From an uncultured Alphaproteobacteria bacterium (GTDB lineage: Bacteria; Pseudomonadota; Alphaproteobacteria; MPNO01; UBA830): 64,000 nucleotides of DNA. The position numbers and the translations under genes were made by a program. The DNA lies in assembly GCA_913046035.1 (NCBI GenBank), contig CAJWSW010000002.1, positions 4,046 to 68,045 of the forward strand, given 5' to 3'. This document shows, in pieces, positions 32,938-64,000 of this stretch; position 1 is the first letter of the stretch, and the number at the start of each line of letters is the position of its first letter. The notes beneath the pieces are model-generated. The model did no database searches and was not told the DNA's origin. It saw only the letters and a program-made list of their open reading frames with translations.

Positions 32938-32940
32938 CGT

Positions 32941-45182: not shown

Positions 45183-45211
45183 CTATATCCACCTATTCTA
45201 TAACGTAAAAC

Positions 45212-46639: not shown

Positions 46640-46803
46640 CGTTCAACTTTAAATTGTTGCATCAATGCCCTGGTGTGAACCGCGCTTACCTCAATACGGT
46701 GAAGTGATCCGCAACGGAAAGCGTGTCGACCCACAGAAGATCAGTCGCAATCAAACCCTTTTTCGCGTTCCACCTGCCTCTCAACACCTATCCGAGGCGT
46801 TTA

Positions 46804-47358: not shown

Positions 47359-48659
47359 TAAACTTTTAATCCTTCTGGGCGGGGACCACCTGTACCCCAA
47401 TCTAAAAGCTCCACAGTATGCAGAACAGGAACCTCTACTGCGTCTTGGATCTGTATCATACACCCTATATTACCAGTTGCGATTACATCCGGCAGTGTAC
47501 GACTTATATGAGCGACTTTCCGGTCACGAAGTTGACTGGCTATCTCTGGCTGCATCAGATTGTAAGTACCCGCGGATCCACAACACAAATGTGCCTCATC
47601 GGGTTCCGAGACGTTGAAACCCAGGGTTGCAAGCAGCTTTTGAGGTGTTGCTGTTATTTCCTGACCATGTTGCAGCGAACACGCACTATGATAGGTGACG
47701 CGTAAGCCACCACGATCGGAATTAGGCAAAACGTCCATCTCTGACACAAATTCCGAAACATCGCGCGTAAGTTCGCTGATACGTCGGGATTTTTCGGCGT
47801 AAGCCTTATCGTTCCTAAGTATGAATGCGTAATCCTTAACCATTGTGCCGCATCCGGATGCATTCACGATGATAGCGTCAACATTATCGGCTGCTTGATC
47901 TAAGTCGATTTCGTGGGTCCACGCGTCAACGTTTGCTCTCATTAATCTTTTTGTGGTTTTCTCTTGGCCTACATGATGCGCGATAGCACCGCAACAACCG
48001 GAGCCTTTGGCAACAATGACTTCGCAACCTAGACGTGTCAGTAACCGCACAGTCGCTTCATTGATTCGCGCGGCTAGTACCTGTTGAACACACCCTTGCA
48101 TCAGTAGGACACGCTTTCGACGTTTACCCTCTGCAGGCCAAATGACCGGGCCAGAGCCCAACGGAGATGACGAGGGTGCCGACGGCGCCAGCATTAACAT
48201 TACGCGCAAACGCTTGGGTATTAGGCCGGAAATCGAGCGGGCTAATTTTGCAAGTCGTAGCAGAAGGAGAAAACGACTTGGGTGTGGCAAGACAGCGCCA
48301 ATCATCGCTCTGACGATTCGGTCGATTATCGGCCGAGTATAAGTTTTTTCAATATGCAAACGAGCGTGATCAATCAGATGCATGTAATTTACACCTGATG
48401 GGCATGTGGTCATACAAGACATGCATGAGAGACATCGATCTAAATGTTTAACAACAGTTTCTGTCGGAGGTTTTCCACTTTCGAGCATGTCCTTCATTAG
48501 ATAGATACGACCACGCGGACTATCTAGTTCGTCTCCAAGTAAAACGTAGGTGGGGCATGTCGCCGTGCAAAAGCCACAATGCACGCATTTCCGCAGTATT
48601 TTTTCTGACTCAGCCAGGTCTGAATCTGCCAGTTGCGCAAGCGAGAAATTCGTCTGCAT
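47358..48659 (-). CDS. glcF: Glycolate oxidase iron-sulfur subunit
   Basis: Two CxxCxxCxxxCP ferredoxin motifs plus CCG domains. 433 aa. Confidence 0.85.
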   Translation of the reverse strand: MQTNFSLAQLADSDLAESEKILRKCVHCGFCTATCPTYVLLGDELDSPRGRIYLMKDMLESGKPPTETVVKHLDRCLSCMSCMTTCPSGVNYMHLIDHARLHIEKTYTRPIIDRIVRAMIGAVLPHPSRFLLLLRLAKLARSISGLIPKRLRVMLMLAPSAPSSSPLGSGPVIWPAEGKRRKRVLLMQGCVQQVLAARINEATVRLLTRLGCEVIVAKGSGCCGAIAHHVGQEKTTKRLMRANVDAWTHEIDLDQAADNVDAIIVNASGCGTMVKDYAFILRNDKAYAEKSRRISELTRDVSEFVSEMDVLPNSDRGGLRVTYHSACSLQHGQEITATPQKLLATLGFNVSEPDEAHLCCGSAGTYNLMQPEIASQLRDRKVAHISRTLPDVIATGNIGCMIQIQDAVEVPVLHTVELLDWGTGGPRPEGLKV

Positions 48660-48662
48660 AAA

Positions 48663-49889
48663 TCAAACACCCTCGAACATACGGCCAGGGTTAAGAATAC
48701 GTTTTGGATCAAATGCGTCTTTTATACGTTCTGTCAGGCGCGCAACGGCCGGCAGCTCAGGATGGAACACTGGTTCAAGGGCCCGTTGTTTTATGCTGCC
48801 TCGGATCAAGGTAGCGTGGCCACCCTCGGCGCCCATCGTCCGGCGTATGATGCTGGAGCCACCATCGTCCATCCCGGAAACCTGCGCCCAAATTAATCCG
48901 CCACCCCAGTCTAGAAACGCGTCCATATCAGCCACCGCATGAAGTTTATTTAGCAGCGCTTGTGCTTCCGCCGGCGCGACGGAAATTTTCCATAAAGCAT
49001 CACGATCGCCAAAATCGATAAATGCACGCACATCCCGCACTTCGCGCCAAAAATTAAGTGAATTATGTGAATGTAGTTCTTCAAGATCGCCAAACGACGC
49101 CAGATCTTCGCGGAGTGATCGACAGCGTTCTTCAACTGATCTGCTGATCCCCTCAAGTCTCAACGCCGCAAGTGCGGCACCCGAGCTGGCGACGTAAGAT
49201 ACTGCCGACTTAGAAACAATAGATTGTGGTAACCAGGCAGCCGCGGAGACGTCGTGCGGACTAGAAAGAGCCGCAGTCATTACCGAGAGCGCAACGGACA
49301 GGTTAGGGCAGTTTACAAGCAGTGTGCGGGTTTTTTCCGGCGCGGGCATAACCTTGACAGTTATATCGGTCATTACGCCCAGTGTTCCCCAAGACCCCGC
49401 CATTAACTTGCAAAGGTCATAGCCGGTTACATTTTTCACCACACGGCCACCAGATCTAAAGATTTCCCCTCGTCCTGAAACCGCCTCAACCCCAAGGAAA
49501 TGGTCACGGGCGGCTCCCACCTTGATACGACGAGGTCCCGCAAGATTCCCGGCTACCACGCCACCTAGCGTTCCCAAGTTCAAAGGAGCGCCAAGTAAAG
49601 GACCATAATCGGGTGGTTCAAATGCCAGCATCTGGCCATTCTGAGCCAATTCAGACTGGAGGTGCGTCATAGTAGTTCCAGGGCCGGCACGCAATACCAG
49701 CTCATCCGGCTCATATAACGAAATCCCGTTTAGCGCAGATGTGCTCAGGATATGGTCAGTCTCCATTGGCCTTCCAATGGAGCGCCGTGATCCTGCACCC
49801 ATGATTTCAAGCGTCTTTTCGGAGGTGATAGCATCTGCGATGATCTCGCAGGTATCCCTGGCCGTTATCGGATTTAGTTGTTCCGTCAT
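48663..49889 (-). CDS. glcE: Glycolate oxidase FAD-binding subunit
   Basis: FAD_binding_4 domain. Start moved to Met 49889 to avoid overlap with glcD. Confidence 0.75.
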   Translation of the reverse strand: MTEQLNPITARDTCEIIADAITSEKTLEIMGAGSRRSIGRPMETDHILSTSALNGISLYEPDELVLRAGPGTTMTHLQSELAQNGQMLAFEPPDYGPLLGAPLNLGTLGGVVAGNLAGPRRIKVGAARDHFLGVEAVSGRGEIFRSGGRVVKNVTGYDLCKLMAGSWGTLGVMTDITVKVMPAPEKTRTLLVNCPNLSVALSVMTAALSSPHDVSAAAWLPQSIVSKSAVSYVASSGAALAALRLEGISRSVEERCRSLREDLASFGDLEELHSHNSLNFWREVRDVRAFIDFGDRDALWKISVAPAEAQALLNKLHAVADMDAFLDWGGGLIWAQVSGMDDGGSSIIRRTMGAEGGHATLIRGSIKQRALEPVFHPELPAVARLTERIKDAFDPKRILNPGRMFEGV

Positions 49890-49896
49890 CAACCCA

Positions 49897-51384
49897 CTAG
49901 AACCTTGGAAGATCCGGAAATCGCGTCTGCTGTGAGTGGATATGGACGCGGCCAAGTTCCGCACACCTGTGCAAGGTAGGAAATACTTTGCCAGGGTTAA
50001 GTTGCTGTGTTGGATCGAAAGCGCATTTGACGCGCTGCTGTTGATTGAGGTCTACCTCGGTAAACATTTCGCCCATTAGGTCTCGCTTTTCTACCCCTAC
50101 GCCATGCTCACCAGTGAGTACGCCGCCTACTTCAACACAAAGCTTTAATATTTCCGCACCAAATTGCTCTGCTTTCTCTAGTTCTCCCGGTGAATTGGCA
50201 TCATAAAGAATAAGAGGGTGCAAATTTCCATCACCAGCGTGAAAAACATTTGCAACTCGAAGGCCGAAATCCTCAGAAAAATCCGACATTCTATCAAGAA
50301 CCTCAGACAGTCGGTTCCTTGGGATGGTCCCATCCATACAGTAGTAGTCTGGAGAAATGCGGCCAACGGCAGGAAACGCCGCTTTTCGTCCAGCCCAAAA
50401 ATCGTTTCGTTCATTTTCACTTTCACTGATGCGAATACTTTGGGCCCCATTTTTGCGAGCGATTGCCTCCACCCTCAAAATTAATTCGTCAACCTCCACC
50501 GATGGACCGTCCAGTTCCACGATCAGCAAGGCGTCCGCTTCGAGGGGATAACCCACTTTGACAAAAGCCTCTGCGGCATGGATTGCAGGCTGATCCATCA
50601 TTTCCATTCCCGCCGGAATAATGCCTGCACCGATGATATCAGCCACGCAAGTACCGGCGCTTTGGCTCGACGGGAAGCCTATTAAAATTGCCCGCGCGGT
50701 CGATGGACTTCGCAGGATACGCACAGTTACCTCCGTAATAACCCCGAGGAGTCCCTCCGAGCCTGTCACAATACCCATCAAGTCGTAACCGCCGGCATCG
50801 AGATACTTTCCGCCAAGACGGACTATTTCACCGTCCATGAGTACCATCTCAATACCAAGTAAATTGTTGGTAGTGAGCCCATATTTCAGGCAATGGACCC
50901 CGCCCGAATTTTCCGCAACATTTCCGCCAATCGAGCACGCTATTTGACTTGACGGATCGGGGGCATAGTAAAAACCTTCGCCATTCACCGCATTTGTAAT
51001 CGCAAGATTCGTCACACCGGTCTGCGCGCGCACGCATCTATTCTTGTAATCAACCTCTAAAATACGATTAAACTTCCCCAGGCCGAGCGTAATCCCATCG
51101 GCAAGCGGCAACGCACCGCCGGATAACGACGTGCCCGCCCCCCTCGGCACAATCTTAATCCCTTCGCCGTAGCAATATTGGAGCACATCAGAAACCTGCT
51201 CCGTTGTCTCTGGAAGAACAACAATGAGAGGCAGCTGCCTATAAGCGGTTAGGCCGTCGCACTCATAAGCGCGCAATTCTTCTTCCTCAGCAATTACGCA
51301 TTCTGCTGGCAAAATTCGACGCAAATCTGAGACAATTTCAGTTCGCCGGGATAGAACACCATTATTTGGTTCGGGCATGCGCAT
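49897..51384 (-). CDS. glcD: Glycolate oxidase subunit GlcD (FAD-linked oxidase)
   Basis: 495 aa, FAD-binding PCMH domain plus C-terminal oxidase domain. Confidence 0.85.
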   Translation of the reverse strand: MRMPEPNNGVLSRRTEIVSDLRRILPAECVIAEEEELRAYECDGLTAYRQLPLIVVLPETTEQVSDVLQYCYGEGIKIVPRGAGTSLSGGALPLADGITLGLGKFNRILEVDYKNRCVRAQTGVTNLAITNAVNGEGFYYAPDPSSQIACSIGGNVAENSGGVHCLKYGLTTNNLLGIEMVLMDGEIVRLGGKYLDAGGYDLMGIVTGSEGLLGVITEVTVRILRSPSTARAILIGFPSSQSAGTCVADIIGAGIIPAGMEMMDQPAIHAAEAFVKVGYPLEADALLIVELDGPSVEVDELILRVEAIARKNGAQSIRISESENERNDFWAGRKAAFPAVGRISPDYYCMDGTIPRNRLSEVLDRMSDFSEDFGLRVANVFHAGDGNLHPLILYDANSPGELEKAEQFGAEILKLCVEVGGVLTGEHGVGVEKRDLMGEMFTEVDLNQQQRVKCAFDPTQQLNPGKVFPTLHRCAELGRVHIHSQQTRFPDLPRF

Positions 51385-51488: not shown

Positions 51489-51614
51489 TTAGCCTTGGCG
51501 AGCTTTAAACCGCGGGTTACGTTTATTAATGACATAAGTGCGACCCCGCCGGCGAATAACACGGCAGAAACGATCCCGTTTTTTAACTGATTTGAGCGAG
51601 TTTACAACTTTCAT
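51489..51614 (-). CDS. rpmJ: 50S ribosomal protein L36, YkgO/type-B (zinc-independent) form
   Basis: [41 protein letters not shown] (41 aa) resembles E. coli YkgO. It is embedded in a longer annotated ORF (51489..51689). Confidence 0.7.
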
Positions 51615-52012: not shown

Positions 52013-52930
52013 CTACTCGCCTAGATAGCGAAACCCGAAAGTGTCACCGTGCGGCACAATCAACCCCGCGGTTGGGTTTGGAAAGTGGGAGGGAAAAATC
52101 GTAACATCCGTGTCTGCATAACGATCCAAAAAGGCCGTTCGCGTCAACCGGGCCGCCTCCATATCAGCGCATGCGACTGTGCTCCAGTGCGGAATGTGAC
52201 ACTGGATCATATGGTGCATCATATCGCCGCAAAGAATTGCCTTGGCCCCGCCTGAACGAATGGATAGGCCAACCATACCGGGCGTGTGACCGGGTAACGG
52301 TTCCAGAACCAACCCATCATCCAATTGGTGATCCATATCAACGAGCACCTCCTGTTTTGCTTCGAGGATCGGTAAAACACTATCTACGATATAGTCACCG
52401 GTACGTGCCATCTGATCCTGTTCAGATTGTTGTTTCCAAAACTCCAGTTCTGCTTTTGCGAAAATATATTTTGCGTTCGGGAAGGTCGGTACCCAACACC
52501 CGTTTTCCAACCTGGTGTTCCAGCCAACATGATCAACGTGCATATGGGTACAAAGGACGTAGTCGATATCTTCTGGCGCAACCCCGAGCTTTAAAAAATT
52601 ATCCATCCACGGAAAATTAGCGTCATCAAACAGTTCCCGATTGCGCGGCTTGTGATTACCAACGCAAGTATCTACCAAAATCGTATGGCGAGGTGTCCGA
52701 ATTAGGAAGGCCTGAATATTGATAACTACATTGCCGGATACCGGATCATAATGACGTGGCACCATCCAGTCACGATGTGGGTCAATGGCAGCTTCATCCC
52801 AATCTGGGAAAAAAGTGGTAGCTCCAAGCATCGGCATCTCTATCTCTACAATTCGGGTGATAGTGATATCGCCGAAGGTGAAATCGAACATAGGCACTCC
52901 GTGTTTGACCATCATAGCGCCACTGCTCAA
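52013..52930 (-). CDS. MBL-fold metallo-hydrolase
   Basis: HMHVDHVGW (HxHxDH) motif. 305 aa. Confidence 0.7.
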   Translation of the reverse strand: MSSGAMMVKHGVPMFDFTFGDITITRIVEIEMPMLGATTFFPDWDEAAIDPHRDWMVPRHYDPVSGNVVINIQAFLIRTPRHTILVDTCVGNHKPRNRELFDDANFPWMDNFLKLGVAPEDIDYVLCTHMHVDHVGWNTRLENGCWVPTFPNAKYIFAKAELEFWKQQSEQDQMARTGDYIVDSVLPILEAKQEVLVDMDHQLDDGLVLEPLPGHTPGMVGLSIRSGGAKAILCGDMMHHMIQCHIPHWSTVACADMEAARLTRTAFLDRYADTDVTIFPSHFPNPTAGLIVPHGDTFGFRYLGE

Positions 52931-53035
52931 ACGCGATCAGCGCGCAATTCTGCCGTGAACTACACTAAGAAAGCGGCTACGCCTCAGCCTGCACTTTTCG
53001 AGAAGAGAAGCCTCACAAAATCTCGATTAATGGCT

Positions 53036-53899
53036 TTATTTCTCGTTACGCACCGGATTAGAGAGCAATCCAACCCCCTCGATCTCGACCTCGCACGTAT
53101 CGCCCTGCTTCATAAATATTGGCGGTTTTCTGACAAAGCCAACGCCCGGCCCGGTTCCGGTCAAAATGATATCGCCAGGCATCAACGTGATCGCACGCGC
53201 AAGTTCGTAGACCAGTGTCTTCACGTCAAACACCATTTCCCGGGTATTAGTTACTTGCAGAACGTTCCCATTTAGCCGCAGCTCGACGTCCAGCCCCTTG
53301 GCGCCAGCGGGTAATTCATCAGCTGTAACAAAATCTGGGCCTATCGAACCGGACGAGTCGAAGTTCTTGCCTATTGTCCATTGTGACGCCTTCATCTGAT
53401 AGTCACGAATGGAGCCTTCATTGGCCACCGAGTATCCAGCGACATAGTCGAGGGCCTCGGATTTCTTTATATTACGGGCCTTCTTGCCAATCACAGCAAC
53501 CATCTCGGCTTCATAATCAAAATGCTTCGATGCCTTGGGACGAATTAGGGCCTGACCATGAGCGACGAATGAGGTCGTAAAACGGGTGAACACGACAGGA
53601 TAAGTAGGAATCTTTAAGCCGGCCTCCGCGGCATGGTCTTTATAGTTGAGACCAATACAGAAAATTTTATCGGGTTTCTGTATCGGTGTAAGGTAGCTTA
53701 CGCGCCCTTTAACGACCGCGCTTGGCTTTGCTTTCCTGGCAGCGCGCCCAGCACGCTGCATTGCGCCCTTACCTTGTGCAATCAGCCCCTTCAGATCTGT
53801 AGGTATCTTCTTATCGACCTTCGACAGGTCTACAAGCCCGGCATCGGTTCGCACCCCAATCTTATTCTTGCCATCTTTTTTGAAAGAAACGAAACGCAT
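53036..53899 (-). CDS. Fumarylacetoacetate hydrolase (FAH) family protein (2-keto-4-pentenoate hydratase-like)
   Basis: 287 aa FAH-fold, ...DYEAEMVAVIGK... metal-binding region. Confidence 0.8.
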   Translation of the reverse strand: MRFVSFKKDGKNKIGVRTDAGLVDLSKVDKKIPTDLKGLIAQGKGAMQRAGRAARKAKPSAVVKGRVSYLTPIQKPDKIFCIGLNYKDHAAEAGLKIPTYPVVFTRFTTSFVAHGQALIRPKASKHFDYEAEMVAVIGKKARNIKKSEALDYVAGYSVANEGSIRDYQMKASQWTIGKNFDSSGSIGPDFVTADELPAGAKGLDVELRLNGNVLQVTNTREMVFDVKTLVYELARAITLMPGDIILTGTGPGVGFVRKPPIFMKQGDTCEVEIEGVGLLSNPVRNEK

Positions 53900-54003
53900 T
53901 GAAAACCCCCGTTTTACATATTGTTCTTAAGATACTTGAGCCAGCATTTGCTGAAACTGGACGCGAAACCTAAACCATCGCACCCCTCATTCAAGCTGTT
54001 TCC

Positions 54004-54693
54004 CTATTGTAGCTCGTAGCCCTTCTCATAGTGCAAGTAAATGCCGTCAAAATAGAACCAGCGCATACGAGCACTTTCACGCGCGAAGTAGATAGCAGCC
54101 TCCTTCATTTCTGGAGTAGTGCAATGACGTTCAAGAATCTCAAACCCCCTGTTACTATGTTCAATATCTACTTCGGAGTGCAGCCAGAAATGTTTTATCG
54201 CCTCTTCATCAAAATTGTAGTTATCCCGTAGCGAGGGCAGCACCCGGCTGTAAAGTCTTGGCGACTGAGATTCTGTGCCGATCCGTATGGCGGCCACCCC
54301 GCAGTACCAATCTTCCTCTCTCGCAACCTTCTTTAACCAATCCGCCCAGGAGCGCGTTGTTGGGAGCCCCTCACCTGCCCTTACGGTTTCGAGATCGGCG
54401 CCATTGGCTTTCGCAAACTGCAGAACAATCTCCATATGAGGTTCGTCAGGATCTTCTTCTTCATGAAAATTCTCTAGCTCCAGCTCGATAACGTCGTTTG
54501 GTGCCTTTGCACAGATTTGAAACGTCGCCTCTGTTAACATGTTCGATATCCAGTGATAATGCTCGACTGCCCAACCCATGCAGGCATTGCGACCTAAATT
54601 ACCAGCTGCCAATTCGTCCCACATAGGATGATCAGCGCAGTGGCGCTCATTCACAGCGTCTTCTAAGGACTGTCTGAACGCTGATTTATTCAT
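54004..54693 (-). CDS. TenA/PqqC-like heme-oxygenase-fold protein (iron-containing redox enzyme family)
   Basis: 229 aa all-helical. His/Glu-rich helices (AVEHYHW...EEDPDEPHMEIVLQFA...WLHSEVDIEH). Confidence 0.55.
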   Translation of the reverse strand: MNKSAFRQSLEDAVNERHCADHPMWDELAAGNLGRNACMGWAVEHYHWISNMLTEATFQICAKAPNDVIELELENFHEEEDPDEPHMEIVLQFAKANGADLETVRAGEGLPTTRSWADWLKKVAREEDWYCGVAAIRIGTESQSPRLYSRVLPSLRDNYNFDEEAIKHFWLHSEVDIEHSNRGFEILERHCTTPEMKEAAIYFARESARMRWFYFDGIYLHYEKGYELQ

Positions 54694-54868
54694 AATCGTT
54701 TCCTTCCAATACGATTAAATCGGGAGAGCTAGATAAAGAATTCATATCCCGGCCCCGGTCCAATTTTGTAGGCAGTTATTCATGAATTCAAGCTCAGTGA
54801 CTAACTTTGTCTCCGCAAGCTAATCGCCCCGTTTGTCAGCCCTTCCTAACATAGGAAACCGGAGGCAT

Positions 54869-54982
54869 ATGATGAACGAAACTAATGGCTTGGAACACGA
54901 CACTAGTACACACCTCAGACTACGCCAGGAATTTCTAATCCGTCAGCTACAAAAGCTATATTTCGCTTTTGTTTATAGATAG
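54869..54982 (+). CDS. Hypothetical 37-aa small ORF with strong SD (GGAGG-N5-ATG)
   Basis: MMNETNGLEHDTSTHLRLRQEFLIRQLQKLYFAFVYR. Below the ORF-track size cutoff. Sits in a 480-bp gap inside the minus-strand cluster. Speculative. Confidence 0.2.
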   Translation: MMNETNGLEHDTSTHLRLRQEFLIRQLQKLYFAFVYR

Positions 54983-55176
54983 GCTGAGTTTGATCTCACG
55001 TAATAGAATATGCCGTTCGCCGCGTTCTAAATGACGACAAAACCGCTTCATAATCTCCGTCAGAAAGCATGATCTAACTCAAAGACCCAAAGAGCAGACG
55101 AGTAAAGGCGCCGGAGTGACCAACAAAAAACGCACTCCTGTCGAGCTATCCCAACATCTTGTTCGGCTTTCTCAAT

Positions 55177-56514
55177 CTACTCGGCAGCCATCTTTGGAGA
55201 ATTAGCCTCGATAGTATCATTGTTATTGCGATTGGTCGCAAACTTGACTTCCGCTGGCTCGTAAATTTCATGCTGAATCTTAAAATAGCCTTCCTCATAC
55301 TGCCCATCGCTGGTTGGTGCCATTGATATCGAGTCAAATGGGCACACATCCAAACAAAGCTCGCAACCAATGCACTTATCGGTATGCACATTGATTTTAC
55401 CAGCCGGATCCTGTGACAAAGCCTCGTAGAAACACATCTGAATGCAGACGTTACAGGTCGGGTTCTGGCAAGTTTCAGCGTTGACGTTAGCGTGGATGCG
55501 ATCCTTGGCAAACTGATCGGAATAATCCGTCGCTGCGGCGTCAGACGCTATACCATACATCGACTTGATGTCATCGTATCCATGTTCATCCATAAAACGG
55601 TCAAGCCCGCGGATAATATTAGGCAGCCACTTCATACCCTTAATCATCAGCACCGAACCTACCTCAACGACATCTGCGCCGGTCATTATAAATTCCACGA
55701 TATCGCGATGGTCGAAAACACCGTTTGACCCCGCGATCGGGATACCGACCTGTTTGTAGATATTGTGCACATATCTGAGCGAAAGTGGCTTTGTCCAGGT
55801 TCCGCCGATACCCGCCGTTCCGCCAAGACGCGGCTGCGCGGTATCAATATCTACTGCGAAACCAGTATAACGGTTAGTCGCGGTAACGGCGGCAGCTCCT
55901 GCTTCCTGCGCCGCCCTTGCAATTTCAACGGGCTTCGATTGGTCAGGGGTTAGCTTAATAATAACAGGAATGTCGACAGCTTCACACACCGCCTGTGTCA
56001 CGTTAAATGCGACCTCAGGATCTTGGCCAATCATGGAACCGCCATGCACTCCTGGCATCAGCGCCGGATGCGGGCAGCCAAAATTCAGTTCAACCATTGG
56101 TAGGCCGCAATCCTCAATAGTGCGACAAATATCCTTCCAGCCTTCGATATCTTTCGCGCCGGCACTGCCGATCAAATGAGCATCGCGTTCACGCGCGTAT
56201 TCGCCCAACTCTTTCAAATAAGGGATCCATTCTTTGTAATAGGTGCTCGAATAACCGGATCGACTATAAAATTTAAAATCGCGCGGTACTTTTCCTTTAA
56301 TGATATCTCCACGATCATTCATGATCGCGTATTTTGAGTTCATGGTGAGGACGGCCATATCATCAATGTCGGTGAGCGTCTTAATAATTGCACCAGACGC
56401 ACCATAATCGAATGCCTGCATCATCAAGTCGGGACTATTGGTCGTTTCAAGAGATGCAATGACGACCGGGTTCTTAAAAGGGACCCCACAAAATTCTACC
56501 GACAAATCGGCCAT
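55177..56514 (-). CDS. PreA-like dihydropyrimidine/dihydroorotate dehydrogenase-family flavoprotein with C-terminal 2x[4Fe-4S] ferredoxin domain
   Basis: TIM-barrel DHOD/DPD-like motifs (NFGCPH, GGIGG...). C-terminal CxxCxxCxxxCP x2. 445 aa. Confidence 0.8.
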   Translation of the reverse strand: MADLSVEFCGVPFKNPVVIASLETTNSPDLMMQAFDYGASGAIIKTLTDIDDMAVLTMNSKYAIMNDRGDIIKGKVPRDFKFYSRSGYSSTYYKEWIPYLKELGEYARERDAHLIGSAGAKDIEGWKDICRTIEDCGLPMVELNFGCPHPALMPGVHGGSMIGQDPEVAFNVTQAVCEAVDIPVIIKLTPDQSKPVEIARAAQEAGAAAVTATNRYTGFAVDIDTAQPRLGGTAGIGGTWTKPLSLRYVHNIYKQVGIPIAGSNGVFDHRDIVEFIMTGADVVEVGSVLMIKGMKWLPNIIRGLDRFMDEHGYDDIKSMYGIASDAAATDYSDQFAKDRIHANVNAETCQNPTCNVCIQMCFYEALSQDPAGKINVHTDKCIGCELCLDVCPFDSISMAPTSDGQYEEGYFKIQHEIYEPAEVKFATNRNNNDTIEANSPKMAAE

Positions 56515-56628
56515 GCTATATCCTCCTAAGTGCTTACTGCGCAGTATATATTTGACTGCAAATAGATTTTGGCCCTTTTAAAGACCAATTGCTAGCCGCA
56601 ATGTAAAGTGCACTACATTGATAAGCTC

Positions 56629-58374
56629 TCACATAGAGCCTCGGAGTGCATTAGTTGCGCCGCTATCGACGGATTTTCCATCAGCAGACGCTACCACTCC
56701 ATATATATCCCTCATAGTAACGTCCGAGATGATCCCATCACGCCAATCCCGTAGGACTAATTCCGGATCTCGTTCTAGCGGCGGGCCGTATCCCCCACCC
56801 CCTGGCGATTGCGTGACAAACCTTACTGTATCGGTCCTGCGCAATCCGAATTTCGGCGCTTCTTCTATTTCACCGTCACTATGCCGCAGATGCATACGCC
56901 CGGACGCGCCGTTTTTCCCCCCATTAATGCCGTAGCCAGTCTCGTAGTTGAGACCCTCACCCCGGAAAGAATGTGTTGCCGGCGTCAGGATATCAACCTC
57001 GTAATCGCAGCCGGACCCTCCACGGTATTTTCCAGGACCAGCGGCATCAATGCGGAATTCCTGGCGGTGGAACATCACTGGATAGAGCTGTTCGTAAACT
57101 TCGACATTCGGCATCGTAAGCCCACCAAGGGTGCAGACATGGCCGATCTGATTAAATCCGTCGCGGCCATCAACAGCGCCGGAACCGGCCGCTGCAGCAC
57201 CGTGATAGAACACATATGGATGACCGCTGTCCTCCTTGCCGACGGAAATGCCGAACACATTTTTAGCCCAACCCGCACAGCCGCGGTCAGGGTCCGCTTG
57301 AGCCAGCGCTTTCCAAACAGCATGAATAATTTCATGGGCGAAGAATACTGTACACATGGTGGTTGGCGCCCCCTCATTTGCGTTGACTATTGTGCCTTCG
57401 GGCGCAATAACGTCGACGCATCGGAATGCCCCCTCATTATGAGGGAGATTTGGGTCAAGGAATGACGCTAAAGCCGTATATATTGCTGAATAAGTATTAC
57501 CCAAAGACGAATTCTTGAAGCCTAGTATCTGATCGTCGGTGCCCGTGAAATCTACGGTCATGTTCTCATTCTCGATCGTCAATCGCACACGAACGGTAAC
57601 GTCGCGGATCTCAAAGCAATCATTATCCGACCGGTCTTCAGCCTCATAAACGCCATCAGGTAATTTAGAAATCTCTGCTCTAACCGACCTGTCTGCGTGA
57701 TCGAGCACGCCTGTGAAGTAATCCATAGCGTTGTCGATGCCTAATTCTTCAACCAGCGCTGCTACGCGTTCCATACCAATACGTGTCGACCCTAACATCG
57801 CGCGAAGATCACCATCTTGCAGATGTGGCGTACGGGTGTTCAGCATGAGCAGCTTCCATAGGTCTTCCCGTGTCTTGCCTGCCTCAACCAACTTTATAAC
57901 CGGGAGGCGCACGCCTTCCGACCAAGCATCGGTCGCAGTGGGGTTATAAGCGCCAGCTGCTCCACCACCGATATCCGACTGATGCGCTCGGTTGCAGGTG
58001 AGCCCGACCATCTGGCCGTCGACAAAGACGGGCCGCGCGATCACCCAGTCAGGTAAGTGGTTTCCACCGGCTTCCCATGGGTCATTCAACAGATATACAT
58101 CGCCTTCGGCTAACTCTGATCCAAAATCTCGCAGAATTGCGCGCACGCCAAAACCACCGCTTCCGGTGTGTATGGGGATGCCGTCCGCTTGGCTAACAAC
58201 CTCGCCGGTTGGCCCCGCAATAAAGCAGGAAAAATCGTGGGCCTGGCTGAAAATAGGACTTCGCGCAGTACGCACCATCACCCAACCCATCTGATGGGAA
58301 ATATGATCAAGCCTGTTTTGCGTGAGCGCGAGAATTACAGGATCAAGCTTATCTGCAACTTTTTTGGAGTCCAT
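56629..58374 (-). CDS. Hydantoinase B/oxoprolinase family protein (HyuB)
   Basis: 581 aa Hydantoinase_B-like. 4 nt downstream of hyuA. Confidence 0.85.
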   Translation of the reverse strand: MDSKKVADKLDPVILALTQNRLDHISHQMGWVMVRTARSPIFSQAHDFSCFIAGPTGEVVSQADGIPIHTGSGGFGVRAILRDFGSELAEGDVYLLNDPWEAGGNHLPDWVIARPVFVDGQMVGLTCNRAHQSDIGGGAAGAYNPTATDAWSEGVRLPVIKLVEAGKTREDLWKLLMLNTRTPHLQDGDLRAMLGSTRIGMERVAALVEELGIDNAMDYFTGVLDHADRSVRAEISKLPDGVYEAEDRSDNDCFEIRDVTVRVRLTIENENMTVDFTGTDDQILGFKNSSLGNTYSAIYTALASFLDPNLPHNEGAFRCVDVIAPEGTIVNANEGAPTTMCTVFFAHEIIHAVWKALAQADPDRGCAGWAKNVFGISVGKEDSGHPYVFYHGAAAAGSGAVDGRDGFNQIGHVCTLGGLTMPNVEVYEQLYPVMFHRQEFRIDAAGPGKYRGGSGCDYEVDILTPATHSFRGEGLNYETGYGINGGKNGASGRMHLRHSDGEIEEAPKFGLRRTDTVRFVTQSPGGGGYGPPLERDPELVLRDWRDGIISDVTMRDIYGVVASADGKSVDSGATNALRGSM

Positions 58375-58378
58375 CGGA

Positions 58379-60454
58379 TTAATCCTCCGTAACGAAGGTG
58401 ACCATGTAATTATTCAGGGCGTCAACGGTAACTCTATCACCTGGGCCAACAAGAATTGTCGTGGTCGCCTCCTCAATGATTGCGGGGCCAACGAAACCTT
58501 GACCATGGCTCAGGTCAGCGCCGCGATATATGGGAGTATCGAGAAAATCACGCGCAGACTCAGCATAGACGGGTCGCCTCTCGATCGGACTTACCTCTAC
58601 TTTCACTGCATCAAATTTTGGATCCTCGAGAGGGGGTAACTTGCCAATTCCGACAACGCGCAGTTTTGCAATATTTATCCGACTCTCAGGATTAATATGG
58701 CCAAATTGACGGTCATATTCGATCTCGAACGCCGTACGGATTTCGTCCGGCATCGCATCCGGATCGAGCGCAACCCGGACGTCCCATTGCTGCCCCTCAT
58801 AATGAAGATCCAACTCATATCCAAACTCAGTATTTTCCTCGCTAAAACCCTCGTTTTGCAGGGCTTCTAGCGCTTGTTTTGCAAGATGCGTGTAACCTTC
58901 AGAGATGACATTTGCCGTATCTGCGTTTAGTTCGCGCATAACTACCTGGACGAAATCACGGCGCACGTCCGCATGTTGCATTCCAATCGCACAAAACGCA
59001 CCGGCCTGACGAGGGATATAAACCGCCCTTGCCCCCAACTTACGTCCGACGCTTGCGCCATGCATCGGACCTGCTCCGCCACAGGCAATCAATATGAAGC
59101 GACCAGGGTTATAACCACGCTGTATGCTTATCCTTTCAACAGCATGAAGTAGGTTCTGTTCTACGATACGGATAAGGCCTGCCGCCGCATCGGTGCGGGA
59201 GATGCCTGCCGGGTTAGCGATTTCGGTGTCTAAGGCCTTTTCGGCAAGCGACATATCCAGCGATACTGAACCACCAGCATAAGGCCCCGGTCGCATTCGG
59301 CCAAGGACCAGATGCGCGTCAGTAACTGTCGGCCGTGTTCCGCCCAGCCCGTAAGCCGCTGGGCCTGGATTAGCGCCCGCTCCTTCGGGACCCGCGTACA
59401 TCAACCCAGCGCCATCAATACCAGAAATCGTGCCGCCACCTGCCCCTACAGTGTGGATATCAACCGAAGGCGTCACCAAGTCGTAATCGTTTACAGACAG
59501 CGCGTCGGTAATCGCAACACGGCCTTCATGCATAAGCATCACGTCACAACTGGTACCACCGATTTCCATGCTAACAAGGTTATTCTCGCCTATCCCCGTT
59601 GCGAGATGCTGCATCGCTCCGACACCTGCAGACGGGCCAGACAGCAACAAGTTTACTGGTTGACGTATCAGCTGATCCAGCGACGCAGCTCCGCCGTTAG
59701 ACTGCAGCATCAAAAGCTTCGTCTTCAGGCCCATGTCGATCAACTTTTGTTGCAACGCAGTGAGATAGGTCGCAACGCGCGGCATCACATATGCATTCAC
59801 GGCGGTGGTCGAGGTGCGTTCGTATTCTCCCATGATAGGAACAATGTCGGAAGACACTGAGACCCACTCGCAGACGTTTTCATCACGCACTAATTTGGCG
59901 ACGGCGTCTTCGTGGGAAGTGTTTACAAAGCTATTCAAAAGACTGACGGCGATGGACTCAACACCTTCATCACGAAATGTCGCGCATGCAATCCTAACAT
60001 CATCAAGGTTTACAGGCTCGATCTCATTTCCTTTCGCGTCAATACGTCCCCCTACCGGAAGCCGCAAATAGCGTGGGATCAACACCGGCGGGTAGGGTGT
60101 CCGGTGATCCCAGGGATCCTTACGGAGCCCGCGCCGCGCTTCAAGGCTATCGCGGAAGCCGGTGGTGGTCAGTAAGCCAACGACTGCACCCTTACCCTCA
60201 AGCAATGTATTGGTTGCGACCGTAGAGCCGTGAAGAAAAAACTGGCAATTGCCAAGAAACTTTTCTATCGGTTGATTAAGTGACGCACAGGCAGTGAGCA
60301 GCGCATCAATAACACCCTCGCCCGGATCAGCCGGTACTGATGGCACTTTATATACCTCGGTTCGCCCGTCGCTATCGGCTACAACAAGATCGGTAAAGGT
60401 TCCGCCTACATCTACACCGACGCGCCATGGCGGTGACTTAATTGTTATCGTCAT
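58379..60454 (-). CDS. Hydantoinase A/oxoprolinase family protein (HyuA), ATP-dependent
   Basis: N-terminal RVGVDVGGTFTDLV ASKHA ATPase motif. 691 aa. Confidence 0.85.
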   Translation of the reverse strand: MTITIKSPPWRVGVDVGGTFTDLVVADSDGRTEVYKVPSVPADPGEGVIDALLTACASLNQPIEKFLGNCQFFLHGSTVATNTLLEGKGAVVGLLTTTGFRDSLEARRGLRKDPWDHRTPYPPVLIPRYLRLPVGGRIDAKGNEIEPVNLDDVRIACATFRDEGVESIAVSLLNSFVNTSHEDAVAKLVRDENVCEWVSVSSDIVPIMGEYERTSTTAVNAYVMPRVATYLTALQQKLIDMGLKTKLLMLQSNGGAASLDQLIRQPVNLLLSGPSAGVGAMQHLATGIGENNLVSMEIGGTSCDVMLMHEGRVAITDALSVNDYDLVTPSVDIHTVGAGGGTISGIDGAGLMYAGPEGAGANPGPAAYGLGGTRPTVTDAHLVLGRMRPGPYAGGSVSLDMSLAEKALDTEIANPAGISRTDAAAGLIRIVEQNLLHAVERISIQRGYNPGRFILIACGGAGPMHGASVGRKLGARAVYIPRQAGAFCAIGMQHADVRRDFVQVVMRELNADTANVISEGYTHLAKQALEALQNEGFSEENTEFGYELDLHYEGQQWDVRVALDPDAMPDEIRTAFEIEYDRQFGHINPESRINIAKLRVVGIGKLPPLEDPKFDAVKVEVSPIERRPVYAESARDFLDTPIYRGADLSHGQGFVGPAIIEEATTTILVGPGDRVTVDALNNYMVTFVTED

Positions 60455-60596
60455 AAAAGTTCCCGATCAAGTCTCCGAAAATTAGTCGGCTATTATACTC
60501 CCTATTCGGAGCGTTTGGTCAAATCGTGACTAAGCAATGCTGCCTGAAATACATCCAAAGCCATTAGGGCGGCTTAAAAATTAATGAAAAAGAAGA

Positions 60597-61664
60597 TCAG
60601 TCAGCAGCCTGAGCCGTCTTTTTTTCGTCGCCATAACGGCGACGGATTACACGTCGCATCGCCAACAACCCCTCATCTGCGGGAATGGTGCCTCGAGGGT
60701 TTGCATCCCTGTTCAGTGCTTTTGGATCCATGTCGATTGCGCGCTGCTGCGCCTCATAAATATGAAGATCTTCTCGCAAAACATTGTTCATCTGCTCAAC
60801 AAAGAGCTCGCGCATATGCTCCGGCACCTTGTCCTCATGCCCGGCGACGGTCCAAAACTGATGGGTTGTAGTTTCTGTTTCCGGGGTCATTGCGTGGTAT
60901 ACGACAAACCCCCAATCACCCTGATCATGATTTCGGGTTTTCTGGTCAGCACCAACGCCAGCGTCCACGGAACCATTGTTAATGTTTATATATGCGGGCG
61001 GAATGAATTGGCTCATTTGCCAACGGTCGATATTATTTTTAAATCCACCGTACTGACGAAATGCAAGTGCTGGCTCAATATCTTCCATCCAGCGGGTTAC
61101 TCGGACACTGTCGCCATCCAGCTCCGTTGTAAGTTGCGCCATTTCCGCTACAGCCCGGTTACCGGTGGTCGAGCCATGTACGTAAGTAAGGTGCGACAGG
61201 TCCAAAAGGTTATCTAGAATCAGACGGTAACCAGCGTTGACGTAGGTTTGTCCCTGCGCCTTAATCCAATGTTCGTTTTCGTTATATTGATGATAGTCAG
61301 GTAGCAAAGCCTCATCGGCTTTTGAAGGGTCGCCCGGCCAGTAGAATAACCATCCGTTCCGTTCAGCAACCGGATAGCGTTTCACGGTTGCCCAGGTCGG
61401 TGCCGTTTCTGACCCAGGCAGATGAATGCAATTGCCATCACAGTTAAAAATCATGCCGTGGTAACCGCACTCAATGTCATCGCCTACCAATCTCCCTTCA
61501 GATAGGGGTAGGTTTCGGTGCGGACAACGGTTTTCCAATGCAACGGGTGTCCCATCCTCCTTGCGGTAAAAAACGATATATTTGTTTAACAGAACACGAC
61601 CAAGAAGCTCGCGGTCAACATCTCTCGACCATGCCCCCACATACCAACAATTTTTAAGAAACAT
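60597..61664 (-). CDS. Rieske [2Fe-2S] non-heme-iron oxygenase alpha subunit, VanA-like (O/N-demethylase/monooxygenase family)
   Basis: MFLKNCWYV... CPHRNLPLSEGRLVGDDIECGYHG Rieske motif. WPGD. 355 aa, collinear with VanA-type proteins. Confidence 0.8.
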   Translation of the reverse strand: MFLKNCWYVGAWSRDVDRELLGRVLLNKYIVFYRKEDGTPVALENRCPHRNLPLSEGRLVGDDIECGYHGMIFNCDGNCIHLPGSETAPTWATVKRYPVAERNGWLFYWPGDPSKADEALLPDYHQYNENEHWIKAQGQTYVNAGYRLILDNLLDLSHLTYVHGSTTGNRAVAEMAQLTTELDGDSVRVTRWMEDIEPALAFRQYGGFKNNIDRWQMSQFIPPAYININNGSVDAGVGADQKTRNHDQGDWGFVVYHAMTPETETTTHQFWTVAGHEDKVPEHMRELFVEQMNNVLREDLHIYEAQQRAIDMDPKALNRDANPRGTIPADEGLLAMRRVIRRRYGDEKKTAQAAD

Positions 61665-61816
61665 TTACACCCTCGCAAAACCAGATCTAAACATTCTGGG
61701 CCGGATAATAAGCAATCCGATTTTCAGTATGGTGACCCGCAGAGAGGGGAGTCAATGGTCCAAAGGGGAACGTTTTGGGGTAGTGTAAAGTCCAGTGAAA
61801 AGGAGAACGAGCTGAT

Positions 61817-64000
61817 ATGGGGTATATGGGGCAGCCACTGAAACGTCGTGAAGACGCTCGATTTTTGAGAGGATCAGGACGGTATGTAGACGACATTGTT
61901 TTGCCAAATATGGCATGGTGCGCCTTCTTACGGTCACCACATGCTCATGCAGAGATCAAAGGGATCAATTCTTCAGTAGCGAGAAGAATGCCGGGTATTC
62001 TAAAAATCCTTACCCACACGGAATGGGAAGCAGCGGGGCTTGGCCAACTTACTGTAGTTCACCCAATGCCGTTTGACGACGGAAGGCTGATGAATGAGAG
62101 TCCGCGCCCGGCGTTCGCGTCTGATCGAGTTCGCCACGTGGGCGATGTCGTTGCCGCTGTTATTGCAGAAACTAGGGCGCAGGCGGAAGACGCGGTTGAT
62201 ATAATAGAGGTTGAGTATAATATCCTGCCCTCAGTGACGGATGTGTCCCGCGCGCTGGATACAAACGCACCAATTATTCACCCACAATTTGGTGATAACA
62301 CGGTCTTTGAGATCGAAAAGGGCGACCCTGAAGCAACGACGCGCGCCCTTGCAGACGCATTCGAAGTTGTTGAAATGACGTTACCTTCGAACCGGGTAGC
62401 GGGTAGCCCTATGGAGCCACGGTCGTACCTATGTGATTTCGATATTGCTACGGAGCGTTACACTCTCTATGCCACTACTCAAACACCTCACTATCTTAGA
62501 CGCTGGCTTTCGAATTACACATTGTTTGTGCCCGAGAGTAATATCCGGGTCATTGCGCCGGACGTTGGCGGGGGCTTTGGTTTAAAGGTCCATTATTCGG
62601 TAGAGGCACCAACAGTGGCTTGGGCGGCTGGCATCCTTGGCAGACCCGTCAAGTGGACCGCAACGCGATCTGAATGCCTAGTGTCAGATTCCCAAGCCCG
62701 CGACCATCATACTGTCGCTAGAATGGGCTTTTCGAAGAACGGCGACATTCTGGCGCTGCAGGTCGACACCGTCGCGGCGCTCGGCGGGTATTTGTCAAAC
62801 TTCGCGCCGAGCATTCCTGGTAACTCCTATCCCCAAACCCTAACCGGCCTTTATCGCACACCAGTCGCCCATCTCCGGGTGCGAGGCGCCTACACAAACA
62901 CCGTGCCGGTAGATGCCTATCGCGGTTCCGGCAGACCGGAAGCGGCCTGGGTCAACGAGCGACTAACCGAACAGGGTGCCCGGCAACTAGGTATTGATGT
63001 AGCGGAAATCCGACGCAAAAATTTTATACGTGCCGAGGACTTCCCTTACCCGACCCCGAGTGGGCGCACCTACGACTGCGGTAACCCGCCGCTGCTTTTT
63101 GAGAAGCTTATTCGTCTGGCAAACTACGAAGCCCTCCGGGCCGAACAGATATGCAAGCGTGACGAGGGAAAACTTATGGGCATCGGTATATCTTGCTTTC
63201 TTGATAAATCGGGAACAGGAAATAGCGCAAATCTCGCATCCCGCGGTGGCATGCACGGTGGGTATGAGAGTGCGATCGTTAGGGTTCATACCGATGGACG
63301 TGTCACACTTTTTTCCGGGAGCCATAGCCATGGTCAGGGACACGACATCACCTATTCCCAAATCGTGGCTGACCGGCTTGGGATCAACGTTGATGAAATA
63401 AATTTAGTAGAGGGTGACACCGACATGGTGCCGTTCGGCAATGGCACCTGGGGGTCGAGGTCATTGACGGTTGGAGGCTCGGCAATGATGATTGCGGCCG
63501 ACCGTATTGCTGCTCGAGCCCGAGAGATTGCTGCTCACATGCTCGAATGCGCCGAGCGAGATTTGGAATATGCTAATGCCGTTTACACCGTGCGGGGGAC
63601 CGACCGACAGGTTTCATTTAAGGATATCGCCGACAGTGCCTATCACGGTGCGCTGCTGCCGCCAAATGCCGACGGCACTGTTACGCCGGGACTCGAAGAG
63701 ACCGTATTCTGGGAACCAAAGGACACGAATGATCCGCAAGCCATGCATTTGGCCGTTGTTTTGGTAGATTCCGATACAGGTGTAGTCACCCTTCGAGATT
63801 ACTTCACTTCTGATGATTGCGGCGTAGTGATAAATCCGATGATAGTTGAGGGCCAAATCCACGGCGGCCTGGGGCAGGGTATTGGCCAGGCACTTATGGA
63901 AGATGTGATCTACGATCATAATGGGGGCGGACAGCTGCTAACCGGAACATTTACCGATTATTGTTTGCCACGCGCAGACGATCTTCCATCGTTCAACCAA
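61817..64000 (+). CDS. Molybdopterin-binding xanthine-dehydrogenase-family large subunit (CoxL-like Mo hydroxylase), partial; continues past window end
   Basis: AGGAG SD, 11 nt, then ATG. 728 codons open to the end. VDAYRGSGRPEA active-site loop (AYRGAGR type, not CO-DH AYRCSFR). Not in the ORF track because it is open-ended. Confidence 0.85.
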   Translation, partial: MGYMGQPLKRREDARFLRGSGRYVDDIVLPNMAWCAFLRSPHAHAEIKGINSSVARRMPGILKILTHTEWEAAGLGQLTVVHPMPFDDGRLMNESPRPAFASDRVRHVGDVVAAVIAETRAQAEDAVDIIEVEYNILPSVTDVSRALDTNAPIIHPQFGDNTVFEIEKGDPEATTRALADAFEVVEMTLPSNRVAGSPMEPRSYLCDFDIATERYTLYATTQTPHYLRRWLSNYTLFVPESNIRVIAPDVGGGFGLKVHYSVEAPTVAWAAGILGRPVKWTATRSECLVSDSQARDHHTVARMGFSKNGDILALQVDTVAALGGYLSNFAPSIPGNSYPQTLTGLYRTPVAHLRVRGAYTNTVPVDAYRGSGRPEAAWVNERLTEQGARQLGIDVAEIRRKNFIRAEDFPYPTPSGRTYDCGNPPLLFEKLIRLANYEALRAEQICKRDEGKLMGIGISCFLDKSGTGNSANLASRGGMHGGYESAIVRVHTDGRVTLFSGSHSHGQGHDITYSQIVADRLGINVDEINLVEGDTDMVPFGNGTWGSRSLTVGGSAMMIAADRIAARAREIAAHMLECAERDLEYANAVYTVRGTDRQVSFKDIADSAYHGALLPPNADGTVTPGLEETVFWEPKDTNDPQAMHLAVVLVDSDTGVVTLRDYFTSDDCGVVINPMIVEGQIHGGLGQGIGQALMEDVIYDHNGGGQLLTGTFTDYCLPRADDLPSFNQ

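Follow-up and report, generated by a model that had tools for sequence, protein, structure and literature searches.

A gene cluster at the end of a 64,000-nucleotide stretch from an uncultured marine alphaproteobacterium (contig CAJWSW010000002.1, positions 4,046 to 68,045; the whole stretch is called the window below) may encode a catabolic route in which a carboxylated N-heteroaromatic compound would be hydroxylated, reduced and then opened as a lactam at the expense of ATP. We assign this reading a probability of about one half. The cluster combines an ATP-dependent lactamase of the hydantoinase/oxoprolinase type (HyuAB) with a reductase that resembles PreA, and with a molybdenum (Mo) hydroxylase of the CoxL type. 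A sequence-only reading of the window had proposed the same chemistry, and this proposal gains support, as genes for the PreA-like reductase are found repeatedly beside HyuAB genes and Mo hydroxylase genes in unrelated lineages. Such re-association is the strongest argument that the parts of the locus act together.

Gene content of the cluster

The cluster is located at 52013-64000 and contains seven open reading frames (ORFs) on the minus strand and one on the plus strand, which runs off the end of the window:

52013-52930, minus strand: hydrolase of the metallo-beta-lactamase (MBL) fold, lactonase-like; Pfam Lactamase_B 3.7e-22; 305 aa from a TTG start
53036-53899, minus strand: FAH-family C-C hydrolase or decarboxylase; FAA_hydrolase 4.9e-65; 287 aa
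54004-54693, minus strand: haem-oxygenase-like dimetal oxidase/oxygenase (HDO); Haem_oxygenas_2 3.6e-20 and TENA_THI-4; 229 aa
55177-56514, minus strand: PreT-less PreA-like reductase with flavin mononucleotide (FMN) and 2x[4Fe-4S]; DHO_dh 2.5e-32 and 4Fe-4S dicluster (Fer4_21); 445 aa
56629-58374, minus strand: HyuB, catalytic lactamase subunit; Hydantoinase_B 3.5e-154; 581 aa
58379-60454, minus strand: HyuA, ATP-binding lactamase subunit; Hydant_A_N, Hydantoinase_A and Hydant_A_C; 691 aa
60597-61664, minus strand: VanA-type Rieske non-haem iron oxygenase, alpha subunit only; Rieske and VanA_C; 355 aa
61817 to beyond 64000, plus strand: CoxL-type molybdopterin hydroxylase, large subunit; Ald_Xan_dh_C, MoCoBD_1 and MoCoBD_2

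The Pfam matches of all eight proteins are strong and full-length, and every domain call previously made for them is correct; the start of the CoxL gene is at 61817 rather than at 61818 as first given. None of the eight proteins reaches any NCBIfam equivalog cut-off, which accords with the earlier view that the cluster matches no characterised pathway.

Related loci, about 170 in all, were searched by tblastn with the proteins of the window. An HDO-seeded scan with one genome per species gave 78 loci, all from metagenome-assembled genomes (MAGs), and a PreA-seeded metagenome scan gave 80 loci, to which eleven context look-ups were added. Spurious antisense ORF clusters, which arise from naive ORF calling in GC-rich loci, were discarded. 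Individual loci are cited below by their L numbers.

The PreA-like reductase is a distinct subfamily

The reductase contains the FMN-binding DHO_dh domain, the C-terminal 2x[4Fe-4S] module and the catalytic Cys of PreA. Alignment to pig dihydropyrimidine dehydrogenase (DPD) revealed that the two FMN lysines (K574 and K709), N668, N736 and the catalytic C671 (C147 in the window protein) are kept. The uracil site is altered at two positions, N609 to Ser and T737 to Arg, and both replacements are invariant within the family. Among 13 family members (63-95% identity), the segments S84-R85-S86-G87-Y88 and N214-R215 and the eight cluster Cys residues are invariant, with R85 and R215 located at uracil-binding positions. 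Two invariant Arg residues in a pyrimidine-type pocket, together with the carboxylate-type transporters that are encoded at the loci of relatives (DctP/DctPQM, TAXI-TRAP and TctABC), suggest that the substrate of the PreA-like protein is anionic and carboxylated.

The protein scores 233.8 bits against the NCBIfam PreA model, below the cut-off of 335, and no PreT partner is encoded in the 64-kb window. The genes adjacent to PreA homologues, counted where a locus offered 5 kb or more of flanking sequence, separate according to tier of identity:

Canonical PreA (<40% identity), 42 loci: PreT adjacent in 38, HyuAB in 0, CoxL-type in 2
PreA-like (40-59% identity), 6 loci: PreT adjacent in 0, HyuAB in 0, CoxL-type in 4
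PreA-like (60% identity or more), 7 loci: PreT adjacent in 0, HyuAB in 4, CoxL-type in 2

PreT is thus a neighbour in none of the 13 PreA-like loci, compared with 38 of the 42 canonical ones, whereas a CoxL-type neighbour is present in 6/13 PreA-like loci and only 2/42 canonical loci. HyuAB adjoins the PreA-like gene in four of the seven loci with at least 60% identity and none of the 42 canonical genes. The PreA-like protein is therefore a distinct subfamily. A tblastn search of plasmids with it returned no match.

These data also bear on whether the locus serves a modified pathway of reductive pyrimidine, orotate or hydantoin breakdown, in which the PreA-like protein would reduce uracil, thymine or orotate and HyuAB would replace dihydropyrimidinase or dihydroorotase. 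PreA is the best NCBIfam match of the reductase, the catalytic Cys and two pyrimidine-binding Asn residues of DPD are kept, and Rut-like families (luciferase-like, Rid, isochorismatase, flavin reductase and Xan_ur permease) surround HDO homologues. The likeness to the reductive pyrimidine pathway (PreT/PreA or DPD, dihydropyrimidinase and beta-ureidopropionase) extends to the FMN/2x[4Fe-4S] architecture, to part of the pyrimidine pocket and to a ring-opening amidohydrolase step that comes next. However, we regard such a variant as improbable. The PreA score is under the cut-off, PreT is never adjacent to the PreA-like gene, the uracil site carries the Ser and the invariant Arg, and the cluster lacks beta-ureidopropionase and carbamoylase. 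In addition, ring opening would proceed via an ATP-dependent enzyme, and the loci of relatives mostly encode TRAP/TTT transporters instead of nucleobase permeases.

HyuAB is predicted to be an ATP-dependent lactamase

The HyuB gene starts 4 bases downstream of the HyuA gene. HyuA contains the full-length A-subunit domains of the hydantoinase/oxoprolinase lactamases and is encoded next to a Hydantoinase_B protein, from which ATP dependence is predicted. The nearest solved structures of HyuA are caprolactamase (6YRA; 1.4e-130) and N-methylhydantoinase (7HK5), while that of HyuB is chain B of 6YRA (1.3e-95). Acetone and acetophenone carboxylases are much further from HyuAB than the lactamases are. 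In its two-subunit Hydantoinase_A/B architecture and its nearest structures, the pair resembles caprolactamase CapAB, N-methylhydantoinase and 5-oxoprolinase OplAB, yet it scores below the equivalog cut-offs and is placed among a reductase and Mo hydroxylases. Identity with CapAB was rejected, as the CapA and CapB scores are 572.4 and 381 bits against a cut-off of 1000 bits each.

The proximity of HyuAB to caprolactamase and N-methylhydantoinase would fit a plain operon for the utilisation of a lactam or N-methylhydantoin (of the creatinine, 5-oxoproline or caprolactam type), next to which the redox genes would be unrelated. This explanation is very improbable, given that the CapA and CapB scores (572 and 381 bits) are far under their cut-offs, that the cluster lacks creatinine deaminase, N-carbamoylsarcosine amidase, sarcosine oxidase and an aminotransferase, and that HyuAB genes keep recurring in close linkage with the gene for the PreA-like reductase.

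The same families re-associate in a modular locus

Synteny across the relatives shows a layered, modular locus and not one fixed operon. The core HyuA-HyuB-PreA-like, usually followed by HDO-FAH, has been found in at least 10 distinct genomes of uncultured Alphaproteobacteria, including genomes that have no Rieske, CoxL or MBL genes, and its recurrent order indicates that the arrangement is not due to chance. The five-gene core HyuA-HyuB-PreA-(MarR)-HDO-FAH stands alone in L004/L017, L013 and L014/L018, with a TAXI-type TRAP transporter inserted within it in L014. The Rieske, CoxL and MBL genes make up the variable parts. The full order Rieske-HyuA-HyuB-PreA-HDO-FAH...MBL-(rpmJ)-glcDEF is restricted to close relatives with 77-95% protein identity (L001, L007, L011, L016 and L087). 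A divergent CoxL gene occupies the same position in L087/L009, L011, L012, L088 and the window, and L016 may share it; another CoxL protein, P0128, is 79% identical to that of the window. The Rieske gene is missing from several related loci. On a 214-kb contig, L092 (11335-12205 region) keeps Rid, MarR, Rieske, HyuAB, PreA, MarR and FAH genes, and a 173-aa ORF at the position that matches MBL is a candidate MBL. MarR genes are found in relatives; MarR regulators, such as NicR, are typical of pyridine and aromatic-acid loci.

Outside these relatives, the families come together again in other orders. A Burkholderiaceae MAG (L090) encodes HyuB (74% identity) adjoining the PreA-like protein (73%), along with HyuA (63%), a complete CoxLMS, a DAO-type oxidase, an amidase and a small 4Fe-4S ferredoxin. 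In L099, IorAB-type and CoxLMS-type hydroxylases flank MarR, PreA-like (63%), divergent HyuAB (30-34%) and DctP genes. PreA-like homologues at 41-47% identity again adjoin CoxL-type and Rid genes, and L091 contains a PreA-like gene (78%) with Rid, a transporter of the major facilitator superfamily, a VanA-type Rieske gene and an Amidohydro_2 gene.

The modularity raises the alternative of a fortuitous mosaic, in which HyuAB-PreA-like, HDO-FAH, CoxL-Rid, Rieske and MBL modules that act on different substrates were joined by deletion in a streamlined genome. Every module is found without the others somewhere. The window has also lost the genes that part the modules in relatives (both MarR genes, luciferase-like, DUF1223, glutathione S-transferase (GST) and 3-hydroxyanthranilate dioxygenase (3-HAO)), and its intergenic gaps hold no remnants of MarR, luciferase-like, GST, 3-HAO, DUF1223, CoxS/M or TRAP genes. 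Furthermore, the neighbours of HDO are very diverse in 75 loci, where they include short-chain dehydrogenase/reductase (SDR), bicupin, Amidohydro_2 and CoA-transferase genes. In contrast, the PreA-like gene re-associates with HyuAB, CoxL-type and Rid genes in unrelated lineages, in other orders and with paralogues; HDO occurs with Rieske and CoxL proteins at 62-69% identity, and with divergent HyuAB in L015 and L079. Genes placed side by side by chance would not recur in such combinations, and we consider the mosaic possible but doubtful.

The Rieske oxygenase and the CoxL-Rid pair

The Rieske protein is encoded divergently from CoxL and retains an intact CPH...CGYH cluster motif and the iron motif NLLDLSHLTYVH. 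With the CxH...CxxH motif, the mononuclear-iron His pair and a VanA_C domain, it belongs to the VanA type. Among solved structures, it is nearest to 7QWT and dicamba O-demethylase DdmC. A look-up of its exact sequence returned no entry.

CoxL is cut by the window end after 728 of about 794 residues. The stretch past the end was read from a 99%-identical Tara Oceans scaffold (L088), which gives a full length of 794 aa, and from the more distant L087 and L089; across the three the length is 794-796 aa. In all of them, CoxL is followed by a gene for a 134-aa Rid-family protein (PF01042), with the stop and start touching or overlapping, and then by unrelated genes, the first of which is on the minus strand. 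No CoxS/CoxM, maturation gene or regulator is located downstream of CoxL in L087, L088 or L089. Searches of the 64 kb by tblastn with the CoxS, CoxM, ferredoxin, MarR, TRAP, luciferase-like, GST, 3-HAO and DUF1223 proteins of relatives gave no match, while positive controls worked. The suggestion that the missing regulator, Rieske reductase and Mo-hydroxylase subunits lie just past position 64000 is therefore not borne out. The conserved minus-strand gene after Rid (L087 12687-13397; L088 4730-5302) has a weak match to EpmC, the hydroxylase of elongation factor P (EF-P), with E of about 1e-4 to 1e-5, and no confident Pfam family.

The active-site loop of CoxL reads AYRGSGR. Form I CO dehydrogenases carry (A/S)YRCS(F/L)R at this position, and form II CoxL proteins, the activity of which is unresolved, carry AYRGAGR (PMC13240472). 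The nearest solved structures are the large chains of CO dehydrogenase, quinoline 2-oxidoreductase and 6-hydroxypseudooxynicotine dehydrogenase. A form I CO dehydrogenase was rejected on the basis of the loop, the missing Cu-binding Cys and the absence of coxM/coxS from the window and from the downstream region in relatives. CoxL shares the AYRGxGR loop, the proximity to CO dehydrogenase large chains and the lack of the Cu-binding Cys with the form II-like Mo hydroxylases; it differs from them in the Ser of its loop, in having no adjoining coxS/coxM and in its translational coupling to a Rid gene.

The Rid proteins were aligned with E. coli RidA. At the column of RidA Arg105, the CoxL-linked Rid carries Ser. 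The same holds for Rid proteins from other lineages that are encoded between HDO paralogues and share only 29% identity with it. Arg105 is essential for imine hydrolysis, and Ser is found there in only about 10% of RidA proteins (PMC4433059). The Arg to Ser change led us to reject a canonical RidA imine deaminase for the Rid gene.

The haem-oxygenase-like dimetal protein

In HDO, the residues E79, H86, E141, H172, D176 and H179 are invariant and coincide with the six ligand positions of CADD (E81, H88, E142, H174, D178 and H181). The AlphaFold model has a mean confidence (pLDDT) of 90.6, and its nearest fold is CADD (TM score 0.83-0.89), followed by PqqC, TenA, BesC and UndA. HDO has T/W at the column of the sacrificial Tyr27 of CADD and V at that of Lys152, the amine donor. 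A p-aminobenzoate synthase of the CADD type was rejected because these residues are not kept and its score, 84.6, is far below the cut-off of 200; PqqC was likewise rejected (47.1 bits against 240, with no pqq genes nearby). HDO therefore shares the fold and all six metal ligands with CADD, PqqC and the diiron oxidases BesC, UndA, HrmI and FlcD, whereas it lacks Tyr27 and Lys152 of CADD and is encoded in catabolic loci with transporters. To our knowledge, the characterised haem-oxygenase-like dimetal oxidases are all biosynthetic.

The HDO family is narrow and forms one 50%-identity cluster among 1066 superfamily representatives. It is distributed over Alphaproteobacteria, Binatia, Chloroflexota and 'delta' MAGs, often with several copies per genome. 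In Defluviicoccus-type loci, its neighbours are a Rieske protein (62-65% identical to that of the window), DctPQM, an HDO paralogue and Rid. Elsewhere they are CoxLSM (67-69%), an HDO paralogue, Rid, an FAD monooxygenase, a creatininase-family gene and a nucleobase permease, and in Binatia they are SDR, bicupin, Amidohydro_2, TctABC, CoA-transferase and thioesterase genes. These neighbourhoods suggest that HDO is an accessory enzyme, dependent on O2, in the catabolism of aromatic or heteroaromatic carboxylates.

Two or three HDO paralogues per locus are interleaved with CoxL-type hydroxylases in L041 (3203-9551) and L046 (1475-12955; Baikal-deep-G48), and an HDO paralogue-Rid-HDO triad recurs in 13 loci (for example L084 8860-10693). 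On plasmids, tblastn identified only homologues of about 32% identity, in Skermanella, Cupriavidus and Caballeronia and in a differing context. Two of these, on Skermanella pTT6-1 (L172 7275-13855) and Caballeronia pSBC2-4 (L173 6824-13866), are accompanied by three or four small 2Fe-2S ferredoxin genes and by genes for an aldehyde dehydrogenase, a haem-binding protein, ornithine cyclodeaminase and a GntR regulator; these hosts are cultured and genetically tractable.

The FAH and MBL hydrolases

The nearest solved structures of the FAH protein are L-2,4-diketo-3-deoxyrhamnonate hydrolase (8GSR), HpcE and FAHD1. Its gene is directly downstream of HDO in 12 related loci and downstream of a MarR gene in L092. 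It is assigned to the FAH superfamily only, with L-2,4-diketo-3-deoxyrhamnonate hydrolase (215 bits against a cut-off of 500) and HpaG (180.5 against 276.4) both rejected.

The MBL protein is nearest to N-acyl homoserine lactone (AHL) lactonase (4ZO2) and methyl parathion hydrolase among solved structures, and a quorum-quenching AHL lactonase (AidB, AiiA) was rejected with 82.7 bits against a cut-off of 360. Relatives align only from residue 8-14, which makes the TTG start doubtful; the ATG at 52891 (292 aa) is the likely start. The MBL gene is located 0.3-3.5 kb past FAH in relatives, directly after the GST and 3-HAO genes in L001 and L002, and is missing from the five-gene-core genomes. The MBL hydrolase is probably the leftover of a neighbouring module and peripheral to the core.

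A proposed route and its weak points

The proposed steps were derived from family membership, active-site residues and gene neighbourhood. The substrate would resemble a pyridine carboxylate, possibly N- or O-methylated, and the VanA-type Rieske oxygenase would demethylate or hydroxylate the incoming compound. The CoxL-type Mo hydroxylase may then place a hydroxyl group beside the ring nitrogen, which would yield a pyridone or lactam. The PreA-like reductase would reduce the C=C bond conjugated to the lactam carbonyl by means of its DPD-type Cys, with the two invariant Arg residues holding the carboxylate, and the resulting lactam, no longer aromatic, would be hydrolysed by HyuAB with consumption of ATP. 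Ring opening would leave an amino or enamine acid, which may be processed by the Rid-family protein and the FAH-family enzyme, the latter through hydrolysis of a C-C bond or decarboxylation of a 2-oxo or 1,3-dicarbonyl acid. HDO would act as an accessory O2-dependent dimetal oxidase that travels with aromatic-carboxylate loci, and the electron partners, transporter and regulator would be encoded elsewhere in the genome. Candidate substrates, to be taken as chemical leads, are picolinate, nicotinate, quinolinate and their methylated forms. For example, 6-hydroxypicolinate could be converted to 2-oxoadipate through reduction, ring opening and deamination, and 6-hydroxyquinolinate could yield a 3-carboxy-2-oxo acid, which would fit an FAH-type decarboxylase.

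Several observations weigh against this route. Scans for promoters and terminators stayed within the expectation from shuffled sequence, and the window encodes no transporter or regulator for the cluster. Within the 64 kb, there is no Rieske reductase (VanB-type included), no small or medium subunit for CoxL and no PreT for the PreA-like protein. The eight genes also do not form a single co-conserved unit. In the L004 genome (4.48 Mb), CoxL-Rid lies 3.4 Mb from the core; L092 has neither HDO nor CoxL; and L012 has no Rieske gene and carries a PreA-like gene (6515-7585) with an internal deletion that removes residues 174-293. The MBL gene of relatives goes with the GST/3-HAO pair that is lost from the window. 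The Ser at the RidA Arg105 column is present in all four CoxL-linked Rid orthologues, which renders an enamine-deaminase role doubtful and the deamination step weak. Finally, every one of the 78 genome-collection loci with HDO comes from a MAG.

A bolder extension, to which we attach low odds, would join an electron loop between CoxL and the PreA-like reductase with HDO as the first catabolic haem-oxygenase-like dimetal enzyme. CoxL, without 2Fe-2S and FAD subunits, would pass electrons taken from the ring, directly or via a ferredoxin, to the PreA-like protein, the [4Fe-4S] clusters and FMN of which would reduce the same ring to a hydrolysable lactam at no net redox cost. HDO would then serve the breakdown of aromatic or heteroaromatic carboxylates in Alphaproteobacteria, Binatia and Chloroflexota.

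Comparison with known N-heteroaromatic pathways

Literature searches for this gene combination found nothing relevant, which agrees with the claim that no characterised pathway matches. The closest route logic is that of nicotinate degradation in Eubacterium barkeri and Azorhizobium caulinodans, where nicotinate is converted through 6-hydroxynicotinate to tetrahydro-6-oxonicotinate and then opened hydrolytically (PMC9304392). Common to that route and the one proposed here are Mo-dependent hydroxylation beside the ring nitrogen, reduction of a pyridone C=C bond and hydrolytic C-N opening with loss of ammonia, followed by decarboxylation or further processing (with 1,4,5,6-tetrahydro-6-oxonicotinate as the intermediate). 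They probably differ in the reductase, which is PreT-less and PreA/DPD-like in the window. They also differ in that ring opening would be performed by ATP-dependent HyuAB and not by an enamidase, and in that HDO, Rieske and FAH genes are present in the window locus. The logic of the nicotinate route is reportedly supported by work of Kitts in 1992.

The nic cluster of P. putida, the pic cluster of A. faecalis, and the tgn and hom clusters probably target a similar class of compound. In contrast to the route proposed here, they cleave the ring oxidatively, and none of them has HyuAB, a PreA-like reductase or HDO. The nic and pic clusters employ a Mo hydroxylase for the first step; unlike the window locus, they use a 2,5-dihydroxypyridine dioxygenase. 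The homarine (homABCDE) and trigonelline (tgn, including tgnAB) systems were ruled out on the ground that their enzymes come from other families. The flavin monooxygenase TgnB is luciferase-like, and Pfam identified no TgnA/TgnB-like two-component flavin oxygenase, peptidase or hydrolase, or aldehyde dehydrogenase of those systems in the cluster. HomA has an FAD-binding domain, and a mode of action like that of TgnAB has been proposed for HomAB (PMC13236597).

Genomic surroundings

Outside the cluster, the window carries core chromosomal genes (tolQR, ruvABC, purEK, biotin synthesis, EF-P and glcDEF). A GapR gene at 42223-42747 marks the organism as an alphaproteobacterium. The nearest relatives are MAGs labelled Alphaproteobacteria or Rhodospirillaceae, and Tara Oceans assemblies hold near-identical copies of the locus. 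Between the cluster and glcDEF lies rpmJ (ribosomal protein L36, 41 aa; 51489-51614, minus strand), which was absent from the ORF list. It is followed by a terminator-like hairpin with a 9-bp stem (51463-51442, minus strand) at the boundary between the cluster and glcDEF. About 180 bp of this rpmJ-hairpin region is kept at 72-78% DNA identity in seven relatives.

A glycolate/glyoxylate block at 43932-51384 comprises a glycerate kinase-like gene (DUF4147/MOFRL), pyruvate kinase, a tetratricopeptide-repeat protein and glcF-glcE-glcD; close relatives keep it in synteny with the cluster, from which it is functionally separate. The sole Rfam match in the window is 6S RNA (SsrS; RF00013, 65 bits) at 8724-8881 on the minus strand, and no tRNAs were found in it. 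The minus-strand group at 32320-35606 contains a 205-aa ORF with only a C-terminal thiamine pyrophosphate-binding domain, a 170-aa ORF without a Pfam match, a monooxygenase of the flavin-containing/Baeyer-Villiger type (543 aa) and a cupin. At 11639-14550, the EF-P gene stands beside a truncated class II lysyl-tRNA-synthetase-like gene and a radical SAM gene, an arrangement that resembles the EpmA/EpmB system of EF-P lysylation. The latter two ORFs overlap by about 220 bases, so that one start is probably miscalled.

Implications

What is new in this locus is the PreT-less PreA-like/HyuAB module, the orphan form-II-like CoxL with its Arg-less Rid, and the putatively catabolic HDO, all known only from uncultured bacteria. 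In public records, HDO homologues are named 'pyrroloquinoline-quinone synthase' or 'TenA family transcriptional regulator', PreA-like homologues 'tRNA-dihydrouridine synthase' or 'dihydroorotate dehydrogenase', and CoxL homologues 'carbon-monoxide dehydrogenase large subunit'. These names look misleading and point to systematic misannotation. If the proposed route is correct, it would represent an undescribed enzymatic solution for the degradation of pyridine-type carboxylates, among which homarine and trigonelline, released in quantity by phytoplankton, would be candidates. It would also provide testable functions for PreT-less PreA-like reductases, for form-II-like CoxL proteins without partner subunits, for Arg-less Rid proteins and for a catabolic branch of the haem-oxygenase-like dimetal oxidases.

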